Under the pieces are notes generated by a model, which searched no databases, was not told the DNA's origin, and worked only from the letters and a program-made list of their open reading frames with translations. A program made the translations under genes and the position numbers. DNA of 64,000 nucleotides, from the NCBI GenBank assembly GCA_964016885.1, contig OZ024754.1:2108001-2172000 (forward strand), written 5' to 3'. Origin of the DNA: Eledone cirrhosa. Lineage: Eukaryota. Each line of letters opens with the position of its first letter. The stretch's first letter is position 1. Shown in pieces: positions 1,164 through 41,249 of the stretch.

Positions 1164-1673
1164 ACATGCATGTATGTATGTATGTATGTATGTATGTATG
1201 TATGTATGTATGTATGTATGTATGATTGCAAAAATGTGTTGATATAGATGTCTGTGTAAGTGTTGTATGTATGAATGAATGTATGATTGCACATATATAT
1301 GTATATGATTGCTTATAGATGGACATTGTTGATTTGTAACATCATGTCAGGCTTCTGGAAGATTGTCAGGCTCTAACCACGTGGTTCAATAATTATTGCT
1401 CATGGGAATATATAGCAGACTAAAATATATCCGGAACCAGGCGCAGGTCCAGAGGAAGTTGACCATTCTGAGAGGGGGAACTGACTAAGCGAATTTCGTT
1501 GAAATCTACGGTAGCTAATGGTCAACTTCCTCTGGCCAGCGCCTGCGAAGACCGGTGGTGGTGAATTGGTACTCACAGGGGAACGGATGAAGAACCCAAC
1601 AGCACACACTTCGTCCGTTCCCATGTCGATTCAATTTGGATTGCCTCGGAAACATAACCTTATTATGTAACAA

Positions 1674-1747
1674 GCTGTCTGACGATGTCGCGACACTGGC
1701 ACACAGAACAGTGTGGACACTGTCGCCATTGAAATATATATCACAGC
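1674..1747 (+). ncRNA. Type-I hammerhead ribozyme motif
   Basis: Stem I GCTGT/ACAGC; CTGACGA 1679-1685; stem II GCGACA/TGTCGC with inner hairpin; GAAA 1731-1734; palindromic stem III ATATATAT; AUC cleavage triplet. Confidence 0.8.
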
Positions 1748-1793
1748 ATTATTATTAAAAGACTTGAACATCTGAAACTACTTCGCTTTTCCT

Positions 1794-1835
<42 letters not shown>

Positions 1836-3575: not shown

Positions 3576-3709
3576 TTTACGTCCACTTTTGTATAGTATA
3601 TTTGGCAATATACCGTATGTTTAATTACAATGCTTTAGAAGACCATGCGCTATCGGTTTTAAAGTAGTCACTGTGTCACTTACTTATTTTCGGCGAAAGA
3701 AGGGAGAGT

Positions 3710-3751
3710 AGCTAACAGTCTGTTTCACGCTGGTTGGCGATCATCAGAGCC
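3710..3751 (-). ncRNA. Type-I hammerhead ribozyme motif
   Basis: Minus strand: GGCT CTGATGA T-CGC-caacca-GCG-T GAAAC-AGACT-GTT AGCT; stem I extends through GAGT/ACTC and ATTTTCGGCG/CGCCGAAAAT (3686-3777). Confidence 0.75.
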
Positions 3752-3887
3752 ACGCACTCGCTGCTTCCGCCGAAAATTATAGAAGCTGGATTCTTATAGA
3801 ATTCCATAATAGCGTATCGTCTTCTAAATGTTTTTAATTAAACATACGGTACATAGGCAAATATACTATACATACATTCACACACAC

Positions 3888-9520: not shown

Positions 9521-10003
9521 TGTGTGTGTGTATGTATGTATACAGACACACACATATATAATGTAAACAGAAATAACAAAAAATGGCAAAACAAACGGCA
9601 CAGTACAAGGAAGGAATATATTAGTTTAACGCTTGAAATACCAGGAAGAGTGTTTTAACGTTTCGGACTGATATAAGGGGGTGGAGAGTGATAGACGTTG
9701 AAATAAATAAAGAGAAAGTGACATTCGAACGAGTATTCTCCGACTCTAACTAATTTACCCACCGCCTCTGGAGAATGGAGAATACGTAGCCCCGGATGAG
9801 AACAAGAGAGATGCGCTGGAACAGTCACTCTCCCTCTCGTCGCTCAAACCCGTCCGCGGCCAACTTCACTTTAATAGTAGTAAGTAAGAATGTAGTCCGG
9901 GAGCCAACAATGCAGGAAGTCACCACGGCTACAGGCTGTTATAAGTATACTGGTGCATCGTAGCTAATTTCATATCTGTTAATAAGGATATATACACTCT
10001 TGT

Positions 10004-10241
10004 GAAGGCGCATGGCTTAGTGGTTAGAGCATTGGCCTTGCAATCGAAAGGATGTGAGTTCAATTCTTAGACTGGGTGGTGTGTTGTTTCCTTGAGCAAG
10101 ACACTTTATTTCACGTTGCTCCAGTTTACTCAGCTGTAAACATGAGATGATAGGACTGGGGTCCCTATCATTAAATCACCCAAAACACCTCCAACGAAAT
10201 ATACCTTGGAGGAGGCCAGCTAAACCTAGGTGTGAGCTGTC
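10004..10241 (+). mobile_element. tRNA-derived SINE, family B
   Basis: A-box TGGCTTAGTGG, B-box GAGTTCAATTC, CCTTGAGCAAGACACTT core, (CA)n tail; homologous to 923-1163. Confidence 0.88.
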
Positions 10242-11084
10242 ACACACACATACTAGCAAAGGTGCAATAAAAATAGTTACTTGTTTCGTTTCAATCAGCG
10301 TTATGCGTGTCTATCGTGATGTCAATGGGGTTTTATATAGTGAGAAAAGTACAGTAAAAACTCCAGTATTCCGTCTTTAAGAGTGCAAACATACTCGATC
10401 GAATTTGGGCCCTACACCCATAAGAATAAAGTCCTGTATACTAAATGATATGCCGTCTTTCTCTTATTGCCATGAGTAGAGTATTAGTTACATCCAGAAA
10501 CAAATAATATTCCACAATAAATGTTATGCACATTTAATCAACTTCTAATTTAATGAATGCAAATAAGAATGAGAAAAGTTTGAAATCAGAAGACTCAATT
10601 AATGTAGATAAACGTGAAAACAAAGTATGTTCAACTTTCTGTTGATTGTGTCACCCACTACAGTTAGAATAAGAATGCTTTGAAGCATAGCTGGAGGAAT
10701 TTTGTAAATTTAATGGTTATTTGTAATCATTCATGTCAAGTGCAATGTGCAATATGTAATTAACTTCATGGAAAATGCAGGATATAACCTCAGAACCTTC
10801 CTGGTTCTGCCATCCACCTTCAACTCACAAATATTAATAATGATAATACAAATAAGAATAATTGTATCATATTGTAGAAGAAGTCGAACAACAACAATGA
10901 GTAACGAATTGGCGCATTTGAAAAGCTGTTAATAATGTAAACTGCAAACATGATGCCTGAACAAAAGAAAATGTGTTTCGCATTCATATGTTAAGTAATA
11001 TAACCTAGTGATATATGTATTTTTCCCTTCCCTAAACTCTACTCTGTAAAATTCTATTCATTGCTAATAGCTCACCCCCACCTA

Positions 11085-12559: not shown

Positions 12560-12568
<9 letters not shown>

Positions 12569-12965
12569 TAAACAAATAATGAATAAACAATTCCTTATAT
12601 TAAACAAAAAAAGTTCATTATTTAACGATCGTTTCTAGGGTATATATGTGTTATAATTGGTATGCATATTCAACAGATCTATGTACAAAATTATACAAAA
12701 TTATACAAATTATCAAGATTAAATATACATACCTAACACATATATACGCCGTCTTCAGAAATATTTCTGAAGACGGCGTATATATGTGTTAGGTATGTAT
12801 ATTTAATCTTGATAATTTGTATAATTTTGTATAATTTTGTACATAGATCTGTTGAATATGCATACCAATTATAACACATATATACCCTAGAAACGATCGT
12901 TAAATAATGAACTTTTTTTGTTTAATATAAGGAATTGTTTATTCATTATTTGTTTAATATTTTAT
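12560..12965. repeat. Spacer-less 406-bp palindrome (Penelope-like fold-back insertion)
   Basis: Centre CAGAAAT|ATTTCTG at 12762/12763; arms complementary by eye out to 12560/12965; sense arm continues to (TA)n at about 13100. Confidence 0.93.
12762..12906 (+). ncRNA. Hammerhead motif with long stem II (mirrored on the minus strand in the left arm)
   Basis: TATTT CTGAAGA(12767-12773) ..GTATATATGTGTT/AACACATATATAC.. GAAAC-GATC-GTT(12890-12901) AAATA; base of stem II is imperfect. Confidence 0.65.
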
Positions 12966-13812: not shown

Positions 13813-13956
13813 GGGCGGTTGATTGGCAGTATCGGTAGAGGGTCAGATGCCATGCTTTGCAGCATAGAGTTACACCCCTTTATGATCAGAATTGAAATCC
13901 CGCCGAGGTTAACTTTGACTTTCATCCTTACGGGGTCGATAAAATAAAGTACCAGT
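13813..13956 (+). mobile_element. tRNA-derived SINE, family A
   Basis: GGCGGTTGATTGGCAGTATCGGTAGAG head, B-box-like GAATTGAAATCC, central CTTTCATCCTTACGGGGTCGATAAAATAAAGTACCAG domain. Confidence 0.9.
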
Positions 13957-21062: not shown

Positions 21063-21287
21063 TATTAGTTATGTAATAAACAACATAAGATAATTATTTC
21101 ATTTACCAGTTTTGCTTTCAATCATCAGAATGAAAAAATCCTGGTGTATTTATTGAAAGTGGATTTGAAAAACCACTTTCAATAAATACACCAGGATTTT
21201 TTCATTCTGATGACTGAAAGCAAATTTATTTGCTTTCAAGAAACCACTGGTAAATGAAATAATTATCTTATGTTGTTTATTACATAA

Positions 21288-21293
<6 letters not shown>
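21063..21293. repeat. Inverted repeat (Penelope-like fold-back) ending in (TA)n
   Basis: Arms TATTAGTTATGTAATAAAC.. / ..GTTTATTACATAACTAATA, about 10-nt loop at 21163-21172; the left arm lacks about 25 nt. Confidence 0.9.
21200..21259 (+). ncRNA. Type-I hammerhead ribozyme motif
   Basis: Stem I TTTCATT/AATGAAA (7 bp); CTGATGA 21207-21213; stem II TGAAAGCAAAT/ATTTGCTTTCA (C-A mismatch at base); GAAAC-CACTG-GTA 21240-21252. Confidence 0.8.
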
Positions 21294-21373: not shown

Positions 21374-21555
21374 AACGAAGGAGGTGTGGTAAGGAACCAG
21401 TGGATCATAACGCACCAGAGTACTCGATACTTGGGGTAGTAGAGTGGGTAATAGGAAAAGAGACAGGACCCGACAGCTGAGCTCTGGCCGTTTTGACAGC
21501 TAGGTCCTAGCTGTCGAAATGGCCGGAGCCCAGCCGTCGGGGTACTGAGTGTTTT

Positions 21556-25403: not shown

Positions 25404-25598
25404 GGGCGGTGGATTGGCAGTATCGGTAGAGGCTCGGACGCCATGCTTTGCAGCAAAGAGTTACGGCCCTTTATGGTCTGAGTTCAAATCCCGCCGAGGT
25501 TAACTTTGCCTTTCATCCTTACGGGGTCGATAAAATAAGGTACCAGTAATGCACTGGGTACTTGCTGGCCTTGTTCCAAAAATAGAAAAAATTATTAA
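25404..25598 (+). mobile_element. SINE family A, full length
   Basis: GGGCGGTGGATTGGCAGTATCGG..GAGTTCAAATCCCGCC..GCTGGCCTTGTTCCAAAAATAGAAA. Confidence 0.92.
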
Positions 25599-25885
25599 TA
25601 TTCGAAAAACTCAGATTACATTTATATATATATACCAAAAGACTTTGGTACGCTTTCTTCAGATAAAATACGAAATTTGTTTTATAAAGAGAGACATACC
25701 CAGGAAAATTATACCTTATCAGTTGGATATTCTCTGGATAGTGGAAATGTATTAGGGATTTTTCAAACTTATGGGTCAATACGCAAATGAATATGTAAAT
25801 AATTGAAAAACAACCGTTTATTTAAACGACTAAGGAGAGAAATTAAATACCCCCTTCTACTTATATATATATATATATATATATT

Positions 25886-30455: not shown

Positions 30456-30657
30456 ACGTGGGAAAGTAAGAAATCGGAGAATAGACCGTTAAAACATGTT
30501 TATTTAAAATATCACCTACGTACGTTTCGCCCAGTTGGGCTTCTCAAGGGCATAAATATTTATGCCCTTGAGAAGCCCAACTGGGCGAAACGTACGTAGG
30601 TGATATTTTAAATAAACATGTTTTAACGGTCTATTCTCCCATTTTTTACTTTCCCAC

Positions 30658-30659
<2 letters not shown>
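30456..30659. repeat. 204-bp spacer-less palindrome (Penelope-like fold-back)
   Basis: Centre CATAAAT|ATTTATG at 30557/30558; a few mismatches only near the arm ends; right arm abuts (TA)n; longer arm runs left to about 30298. Confidence 0.92.
30566..30600 (+). ncRNA. Minimal hammerhead, U3-A8 variant (mirrored at 30515-30549 on minus)
   Basis: CC TTGAGAA GCCC-aact-GGGC GAAAC-GTAC-GTA GG; palindromic stem III ACGTACGT; stem I short. Confidence 0.7.
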
Positions 30660-30839: not shown

Positions 30840-30847
<8 letters not shown>

Positions 30848-31466
30848 ATATTTGGGGAGGGTCATATTTGCGTAATATTGCCAGAATTAATAACAGAACA
30901 CACTCACTGTTTGGTTGGTTTTCGCTTCTCGCTGTCTTTTATATATATATATCTGCGATCTAACTTACTCGGTCCTCAATGTTGCCATTGACTGACCGGC
31001 GGTCAAAAATAATACAGATACAATATAGACAAACACATATATATATAGTTTACATAATTTACATAAATCTTTCGTTGCACATCTGCAACATCGTCAGTGG
31101 TGTTATATTCATTGTTCCTCCTGTTGTGTTGTATGTCTACGCCAAAAAAAAAAAAAAAAAATGGCGTAGACATACAACACAACAGGAGGAACAATGAATA
31201 TAACACCACTGACGATGTTGCAGATGTGCAACGAAAGATTTATGTAAATTATGTAAACTATATATATATGTGTTTGTCTATATTGTATCTGTATTATTTT
31301 TGACCACCGGTCAGTCAATGGCAACATTGAGGACCGAGTAAGTTAGATCGCAGATATATATATATAAAAGACAGCGAGAAGCGAAAACCAACCAAACAGT
31401 GAGTGTGTTCTGTTATTAATTCTGGCAATATTACGCAAATATGACCCTCCCCAAATATAACAATAT
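30840..31466. repeat. 627-bp inverted repeat with an oligo(A) spacer
   Basis: Arms of about 305 bp; mirrored ORFs in the track (31003-31209 minus / 31097-31303 plus; 30979-31197 plus / 31109-31327 minus) show one substitution outside the spacer; spacer A17 at 31145-31161; CTGACGA-T-GTTGCA-gatg-TGCAAC-GAAA at 31209-31236. Confidence 0.93.
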
Positions 31467-36674: not shown

Positions 36675-36868
36675 TATTGTTTTCTAATTTAGGCAACAGG
36701 CCAGCAATTTTGAGCAAGGGAACTTAGTTACTGTTAGTTTATTTTATTTATCACTCAGACAGATGAAATGTAAAGTGTTGTACTCGGCTTCATTTGAACT
36801 CAGAACATAAGAAGCCAGAACTAATACTCCTTAGCTTTTGTCCAAATCTCTGACGACTCTACCAATCC
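36675..36868 (-). mobile_element. Older diverged SINE related to family A
   Basis: TTTAGGCAACAGGCCAGCAATT..ATTTGAACTCAGAAC..GACGACTCTACCAATCC. Confidence 0.65.
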
Positions 36869-37145
36869 ATAACCCTAATATATTCTCCTAGACTCTACCA
36901 ATCCATAATCCTAATATATTCTCCTAGACTCTGCCAATCCATAACCCTAATATATTCTCCTAGACTCTGCCAATCCATAACCCTAATATATTCTCCTAAA
37001 CTCTGCCAATCCATGACCCTAATATATTCTCCTAGACTCTGCCAATCCATAACCCTAATATATTCTCCTAGACTCTGCCAATCCATAACCCTAATATATT
37101 CTCCTAGACTCTGCCAATCCATGACCCTAATATATTCTCCTAGAC
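36855..37145. repeat. 36-bp minisatellite, 8 copies
   Basis: Unit GACTCTGCCAATCCATAACCCTAATATATTCTCCTA. Confidence 0.95.
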
Positions 37146-38800: not shown

Positions 38801-39068
38801 CCTATCAAATTATGACAATAAGAGAGGTATAACTCGGATGAATACACGCCTAATTAAATTTCACGAAGGCCGGTACTTATAATATAAGTACTTGAGATAT
38901 ACAATTAAGGAAAACGAAATAATAATCAAAATTGATTGACAGAAGAAAATAAACAAAATAGTTTCTTGGACCTCAATAAAACATCACCAAGGAGAGTTTA
39001 TTTCATGTTTCTGGCTTGTTAACATAAGCAACAATTATAGATGTGTGTATGTGTGTGTGTGTGTGTAT

Positions 39069-39211
39069 GACAGCTGACACCTATGCAGGTTTAGCTGGCC
39101 TCCTCCAAGTTATATCTCGTTGGAGGTGTCTTTGGTAATTTAATGATAGGGACCCCAGTCCTATCATCTCATTTCTACAGCTGAGTAAACTGGAGCAACG
39201 TGAAATAAAAT
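39069..39211 (-). mobile_element. SINE family B, 3' half
   Basis: Near-identical to 923-1062. Confidence 0.85.
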
Positions 39212-40972: not shown

Positions 40973-41249
40973 TATATTGAAAAGATAACAAGGACGATTG
41001 GTTACTCCTTCATTACATTTATTGGTTGGTGACGCGCGTTTCGCCACTGATCAGCTCAAGGTTCTATCTGTATCGATCTTACCCGACTCTGTAATCTGCA
41101 GCTCGACGGACCCCTTAAAATGCTAGTAGTAAAAGTCTGGTAAGATCGATACTGATCGAACCTTGAGCTGATCAGTGGCGAAACGCGCGTCACCAACCAA
41201 TAAATGAAATGAAGGTGTAACCAATCGTCCTTGTTATCTTTTCAATATA
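40973..41249. repeat. Inverted repeat, 116-bp arms and 45-bp spacer, carrying the 3' half of a hammerhead
   Basis: Arms 40973-41088 / 41134-41249 with several mismatches; GAAAC-GCGC-GTC at 41180-41191; sense arm continues to (TA)n at about 41346. Confidence 0.88.

Follow-up and report, generated by a model that had tools for sequence, protein, structure and literature searches.

Positions 1468-1796 of the window (the whole 64,000-nt stretch of Eledone cirrhosa DNA analyzed here) probably constitute a solo, 5'-truncated 3' end of an abundant Penelope-like element (PLE), or of a derivative that is non-autonomous and relies on the enzymes of PLEs. The element works like a PLE terminus and most likely derives from one; because no ORF was recovered, membership in the PLEs is unproven, and we infer the PLE identity of the upstream part of the family. 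The original prediction had treated 1401-1795 as one island, read as a retrozyme-like RNA or a complete pseudo-LTR. Its broader claim, that the stretch is non-coding, carries a hammerhead and belongs to a multi-copy retroelement in the orbit of PLEs and retrozymes, is borne out, with many copies in public sequencing runs. The narrower claim of a complete pseudo-LTR or one unit of about 400 nt is not, as the island is a composite of flank, a 30-nt inversion and 329 nt of an element cut at 1468. Given this make-up, its retrozyme-monomer-like size and branched fold are partly accidental. The stretch comprises the following features (z, folding z-score).

1401-1437, no strand: flank outside the repeat family (depth 0 over bins 1335-1429 in all four mapped runs; z -0.11 for 1330-1437)
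1438-1467, minus strand: inverted duplicate of 1517-1545, located where the element is cut at its 5' end (93.3% over 30 nt)
1468-1796, plus strand: 5'-truncated 3' terminal segment (3' UTR or pseudo-LTR-like) of a multi-copy retroelement (run depth; z -3.8 on the plus and -2.2 on the minus strand)
1517-1545, plus strand: family sequence, source of the inverted arm (CT at 1532-33 common to both arms)
1579-1622, plus strand: hairpin of 14 bp closed by an A/C-rich loop of 16 nt, within the family (pair probability 1.0)
1674-1747, plus strand: type I hammerhead, PLE variant form (descriptors, variants, fold)
1734-1741, plus strand: self-complementary 8-nt helix III (perfect palindrome)
1742, plus strand: C17, predicted cleavage 3' of AUC (sequence and hammerhead consensus)
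1748-1796, plus strand: unstructured tail of about 49 nt, family sequence (MFE 0.0; highest X1 depth bins)
1797-1834, no strand: (TA)19 microsatellite, likely insertion target ((TA)n preference of Hydra- and Naiad-clade PLEs)

The window is AT-rich, animal-like DNA with many microsatellites and short dispersed repeats. Against this background 1401-1795 is GC-richer, as had been predicted (45.6% versus 31.2% for the whole window; rank 2 among 125 tiles), and no ORF of at least 80 aa overlapping it was found, in agreement with the predicted lack of a credible reading frame. The (TA)n tract described at its end is (TA)19, directly 3' of 1468-1796. High structure had also been claimed, and the plus-strand fold is indeed strong (z -6.4); the minus strand, however, reaches z -5.7, and z is -4 or lower in 45 of 125 tiles (395 nt each; 125 of the 161 window tiles), with 1401-1795 outside the top 15. 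Since strong folding is common in these tiles, folding alone is weakly informative for this stretch. Of the individual stems, the 14-bp one at 1579-1592/1609-1622 held up well, with one U.G pair, z -4.9 and none of 60 shuffles as good. An alternative closing stem suggested at 1401/1625 exists as letters (8 bp, 1401-1408 with 1618-1625) but is absent from the MFE fold, lies at chance level (about one such inverted match is expected per 395 nt by an arithmetic estimate) and has its 5' arm outside the family.

The limits of the family were traced in four (X1, X5, X7 and X9) of 11 public sequencing runs, X1 to X11; part of the element is contained in 8 of the 11, X4, X6 and X8 being small-share runs. 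Depth is high over 1468-1796 in the mapped runs. A depth hole alone is no proof of absence, and the argument from bins 1335-1429 is their contrast with the family, whose depth is 1e4-2e5. At the boundary itself, X9 raw-read depth is 0/0.16 at 1449-1467 versus 18/50 at 1468-1486, and loose ends immediately before 1468/1469 in X1 and X5 carry letters that differ from the window (median length up to 56; 30 upstream family letters are available). The repeat family extends upstream of 1468 with other sequence. As only 1468-1796 belongs to the family, the window copy is 5'-truncated. Four further positions at which X9 molecules end (1492, 1564, 1633 and 1636) were considered as element boundaries and discarded, as all lie on AATT sites of a RAD library.

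The predicted 30-bp stem is real (1438-1467 with 1517-1545, 93.3% identity, E 4e-6 within the window), but it is not part of the element: it is an inverted duplication unseen in other copies. Both arms carry CT at 1532-33, where most copies have TC (79% and 87% in X1). Summed X1 depth of 432-728 at 1430-1467 speaks against the arm being absent from other copies; this depth probably reflects short family contigs mapped in reverse, because the majority sequence is closer to arm 1438-1467. Comparison of the upstream flank (1300-1437) with the element revealed no inverted homology beyond the 30 nt, and no microhomology was seen at the inversion junction. These data bear on the possibility that 1401-1795 is a self-contained structured RNA of about 400 nt, its stems functional in one monomer or in a complete pseudo-LTR. 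The plus-strand fold and the X1 depth on 1430-1467 would fit such a unit; yet the minus strand folds about equally well, family depth is missing over 1335-1429, X9 reads at 1468-1486 stop short of 1449-1467, other copies differ upstream, and no opposite-strand joint at 1467/1468 occurs among the joints listed, so that we consider it very improbable. A degenerate second hammerhead closed by the 30-bp stem was also rejected: its helix I would need the inverted arm, which is missing from other copies, neither candidate core conforms to CUGANGA, and variants strike the second core.

The family is large and divergent. In total, 1,896 X1 contigs and 2,432 X9 reads map to 1240-1796, with those on the low-complexity flank 1264-1307 counted in. 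Two other organisms also have relatives, represented by X5 (28 contigs, one of them spanning 1468-1752) and X7 (2 short contigs), and a 24-nt pattern from the element had no matches in metagenome and viral contigs. The longest X1 contigs, at depth 7-10, each differ from the window at 13-29 letters in 117-159 nt, which implies many distinct copies; summed contig depth is not copy number. X1 depth is 2-5e4 in most bins of 1487-1619 and 1.3-2.2e5 in most bins of 1620-1790, a rise of about 5-fold toward the 3' end that is confounded by divergence and contig overlap, and X9 is without a clean gradient. The window itself holds a single copy, which, over its 329 nt and among the variant rows listed, differs from the X1 majority by 14 substitutions plus 1 indel (about 4.5%).

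The hammerhead at 1674-1747 is formed by a 5-bp helix I (1674-78/1743-47), a core with CUGACGA at 1679-85, GAA at 1731-33 and AUC ending with C17 at 1742, and a 45-nt helix II region (1686-1730) of about 15 bp with mismatches. The conserved positions C3-U4-G5-A6-N7-G8-A9, G12-A13-A14-A15.1 and U16.1-H17 are all present (1679-85, 1731-34 and 1741-42). A strict descriptor found 2 matches in the window, whereas 100 block-shuffled versions of it gave none; a second one gave the same outcome (2 versus 0 of 100), both having been composed after the motif had been seen, and the 9 matches of a looser descriptor are mostly chance. Rfam produced no gathering-level match anywhere in the window, and at E <= 10 over 900-2100 it returned only microsatellite and hairpin noise. 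A hammerhead descriptor search yielded 58 + 5 loci, and 0 of these 63 had blastn similarity to 1301-2030; three with a 5-bp helix I (G.U counted; two of them identical and without helix II) were judged to be chance.

A full type I hammerhead had been predicted here, and its core and helices I and II are in place. It is, in fact, complete in the core only: the base of helix II (10.1/11.1) is U.U instead of a Watson-Crick pair, and helix III is unfavorable in the monomer. In the predicted ensemble, four helix I pairs have probabilities of 0.98-1.0 and the fifth 0.64, and pair 1690-1726 of helix II has 0.99; monomer helix III has 0.003 and thus does not form a stable helix, and helix II recruits N7, G8 and A9 into pairing (unpaired probability 0.07-0.09). 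Described PLE and axolotl hammerheads depart from the standard motif in the same ways. The helix III hairpin of the monomer costs +4.7 kcal/mol versus -3.2 kcal/mol for the palindrome duplex, and the palindrome 1734-41 is predicted to pair between two molecules. From the unfavorable monomer helix III, the palindrome duplex and the paired core, little or no solo cleavage would be expected; cleavage after C1742 is predicted to occur as a dimer in multi-unit transcripts.

Helix I, helix III and the conserved core carry no variant among the 40 of 82 variant rows listed, and N7 (1683) is variable. Pair 1690/1726 is G-C in the window copy and A-U in most copies, a compensatory change (86% and 79% in X1; 222/388 and 241/559 in X9; both on one X5 contig), and changes at 1693 and 1701 yield G.U pairs. 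Position 1720 forms a C.C mismatch in the window copy and in many X9 reads, and a near-private change at 1717, where 99% of X1 depth has C, breaks a distal helix II pair. In hairpin 1579-1622, three of the listed variants fall in the loop, the one at 1613 turns U.G into U-A, and the one at 1592 affects the loop-closing pair; for 1592, and for 1692 in X5, no partner change was found among the rows listed. One compensatory pair supports helix II but does not prove it. The original prediction had named dispersed copies and compensatory changes as its test, and both are seen: the family is neither single-copy nor devoid of covariation. Tandem copies, also named there, are not present at the locus, which has one hammerhead and no array in the window.

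Conservation of the core also bears on whether the motif could be a regulatory ribozyme co-opted by the host, or whether a SINE-like repeat merely folds this way by chance. No Rfam match and an abundance of structured tiles would be compatible with either, but the motif appears in 0 of 100 shuffles and its core is kept while helix II covaries. The change at 1717, which looks like that of a decaying copy, also speaks against them. We therefore regard both as highly unlikely.

The preferred reading, a truncated PLE 3' end, draws on several features shared with described elements. PLE hammerheads have a helix I of 4-5 bp, a longer helix II and a small palindromic helix III, and occur mostly as single motifs from truncated elements, with activity predicted for dimers (PMC4209133). 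Those of EN+ PLEs in that source have the same type I form as ours, with short helix I, long helix II and palindromic helix III; their helix II is 7-8 bp versus the 45-nt region of about 15 bp here, and a link to an ORF is putative here. In Hydra-clade PLEs, the 3' end is some 100-200 nt away from a sense hammerhead, and insertions target (TA)n; the latter preference is shared by the Naiad clade and includes Octopus elements (PMC8557442). The arrangement at 1468-1796 is similar: the hammerhead lies near the terminus and is followed by a short tail, so that 49 nt separate helix I from (TA)n. The sense orientation near the 3' end, palindromic helix III and (TA)n target are the same as in that clade, including Hydra-1_Obim (PMC8557442). 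The helix II base CUGA(U/C)GAU...UGAA is the common form there, with U on both sides in most listed members, as here (PMC8557442). The sequence of the Hydra-1_oBim hammerhead differs from 1674-1747, helix III AUAUAUAU is absent from the table of PMC8557442, and two short motifs of the element were not found in the supplement of Craig et al. 2021 (PMC8557442). Coleoid genomes are rich in Penelope families (PMC13282606, PMC8967140).

Truncation and inversion offer a second line of comparison. A hallmark of PLEs is 5' truncation with an adjacent inverted copy, along with a bias toward microsatellites (10.1101/2021.04.23.441226). The copy is cut at 1468 while its family extends further, and the confounded rise of X1 depth to the 3' end points the same way. 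Inversion occurs exactly at the junction, yet involves 30 nt of internal sequence, unlike the usual full inverted PLE 3' end. Insertion next to (TA)19 agrees with the (TA)n preference, a weak point given how very common such tracts are in the window. Two pseudo-LTRs around an ORF are not present; one copy occurs in the window and the locus is not a complete PLE, a lone pseudo-LTR-like copy being what truncation would be expected to leave.

Coding evidence is scant. No reverse transcriptase or GIY-YIG domain was detected by Pfam in 85 window frames (84 of 705 frames, after filtering on length and complexity, and one extra), and upstream of 1468 only 30 letters of the family are available; two sub-threshold matches elsewhere in the window are not relevant. 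Both X1 loose-end consensuses have a single open frame that reads GLN, with a stop at 1469-71. In Neptune PLEs the GIY-YIG domain ends with GLN (PMC8557442), which makes 1468-71 a weak hint of a putative endonuclease end; it consists of three residues noticed post hoc, without the usual proline two residues before, and is absent in the X5 loose end. If genuine, it would fit the Neptune rather than the Hydra clade. Neptune-clade PLEs are similar in microsatellite bias and in this endonuclease end, which here amounts to three residues with no protein recovered.

Biochemical work on an anole PLE provides a further reference. Its hammerhead required protein for activity and was dispensable for insertion in vitro, and its endonuclease favored AT-rich DNA (PMC11167929). 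Reverse transcription of that element starts in an AC-rich stem loop downstream of the hammerhead (PMC11167929); the A/C-rich hairpin at 1579-1622 is upstream of the hammerhead and therefore differs in position. Insertion at the present locus might have proceeded as follows. A PLE GIY-YIG endonuclease would nick DNA at (TA)n or another AT-rich site, copying by reverse transcription would begin near the tail and halt after about 330 nt, and fold-back or template switch at the 5' junction would add 30 nt of inverted sequence, creating the long stem. In the source element, transcripts of several units would be cleaved after C1742 by the hammerhead, acting as a palindrome dimer or with the help of protein. 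Both this insertion route and dimer cleavage are inferred, and the single copy in the window is most likely inert.

The other reading to be weighed takes 1468-1796 as a lone copy, truncated at its 5' end, of a tandem non-LTR retrozyme with a monomer longer than 329 nt, whose arrays elsewhere would be transcribed, cut at successive hammerheads and ligated into circles. Tandem units and circular RNA are the defining traits of non-LTR retrozymes (PMC7229834, PMC7761336). Those of metazoans are, like this element, non-coding and multi-copy, with a type I hammerhead and G+C below 50% (PMC7229834; 10.64898/2026.07.22.740005). Mussel monomers measure 350-390 bp and are without canonical tertiary contacts (PMC7229834), and U.U at the helix II base occurs in an axolotl retrozyme hammerhead as well (PMC7229834). 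Absence of an ORF, many copies, a palindromic helix III suited to tandem dimers, and better folding of 1468-1673 on the plus (z -4.4) than on the minus strand (z -1.1) all fit this reading. However, the locus has one hammerhead and one copy, with no tandem units, and so cannot free a monomer circle by two cis cleavages. Depth is uneven along the unit, and the canonical form with a 6-bp helix I and a 4-bp helix II (PMC4209133) is absent. None of the 12 joints listed runs from the 3' end back to a monomer start (a weak test, in that a monomer longer than the mapped stretch gives no joint), and upstream loose ends are unlike the 3' tail; on these grounds a monomer would exceed about 360-385 nt. 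The unit comprises no fewer than 329 nt in addition to its upstream letters, versus about 170-400 nt for non-coding retrozyme monomers. We consider a retrozyme origin unlikely. The two classes grade into each other, since retrozymes are proposed to derive from PLE pseudo-LTRs and many of their monomers are solo (10.64898/2026.07.22.740005); compared with those, the 1468-1796 locus is solo and truncated.

Several other repeats were observed in the window. Together with 1674-1747, the 64 kb holds three complete hammerheads, the others being near 21207 and at 3708-3753. The region 21063-21293 contains an unrelated type I hammerhead on the plus strand (21200-21260, core at 21207) with a 7-bp helix I and a long helix II; its helix III is palindromic like those of Hydra-clade PLEs, a long (TA)n follows after about 30 nt, and upstream lies an inverted copy, head to head with it, whose ribozyme has lost 21 nt. 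This hammerhead end with an inverted copy beside (TA)n serves as an internal control for assignment to PLEs. The hammerhead at 3708-3753, on the minus strand, is of type I with a 6-bp helix I including one G.U, CUGAUGAU...UGAA and a palindromic helix III, and sits inside a degenerate palindrome (3590-3872) that is flanked by TA runs at either end. A palindrome at 40973-41249 resembles a pair of PLE termini: it has two head-to-head hammerhead-like cores, CUGAUCA...GAAACGCGCGUC, at 41054 (minus) and 41168 (plus), in which C replaces G8 and AATAAA follows. Near-perfect palindromes (88-100% identity, 152-627 nt) occur at 30840-31466, 12560-12965, 30456-30659, 55396-55557 and 48224-48375; several adjoin TA runs, the first two hold CUGANGA-like starts, and they are possibly inverted retroelement ends or assembly fold-backs.

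Right after the (TA)n tract, 1834-1937 is a separate hairpin element (MFE -60 kcal/mol over 107 nt), 69-75% like 21416-21548 and one of several TA-flanked hairpin repeats. On the other side, 910-1170 is a SINE-like repeat; its copies at 10001-10253 and 39057-39209 are 92-93% identical, and it has a weak tRNA match on the minus strand (1094-1155, 22.4 bits, below cut-off). A dispersed repeat of about 190 nt (25404-25600) has about ten copies in the window at 82-90% identity, including those at 13813, 16363, 42757, 43044, 51734, 54791, 59846, 61469 and 61687. Tandem minisatellites are located at 45685-46577, 36855-37145 and 53348-54410, the first two with periods of about 66 and 72 nt.

Among the papers listed in literature searches on octopus and cephalopod hammerheads, self-cleaving ribozymes and retrozymes, none describes this family in its title or abstract; Repbase, Dfam and article supplements may do so, and that of PMC7229834 may include a similar mollusc family. 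The family appears to be uncatalogued, with a long covarying helix II missed by Rfam. As a kind of repeat, a hammerhead-bearing PLE-like end is ordinary for such genomes; hammerheads at PLE ends number in the thousands per genome. What the locus illustrates is that long perfect stems beside hammerheads can be by-products of insertion rather than RNA structure. The family would matter more as a tandem, circle-forming retrozyme. Doubtful as it is, 1468-1796 would then make up most of one monomer of a hammerhead retroelement that is non-autonomous, very abundant and so far undescribed, from an animal group (cephalopods) for which the papers listed report none, with a conserved A/C-loop hairpin, an unusually long helix II, arrays elsewhere, dimer cutting and circular RNA, and would provide an invertebrate test case for the transition from pseudo-LTR to retrozyme.
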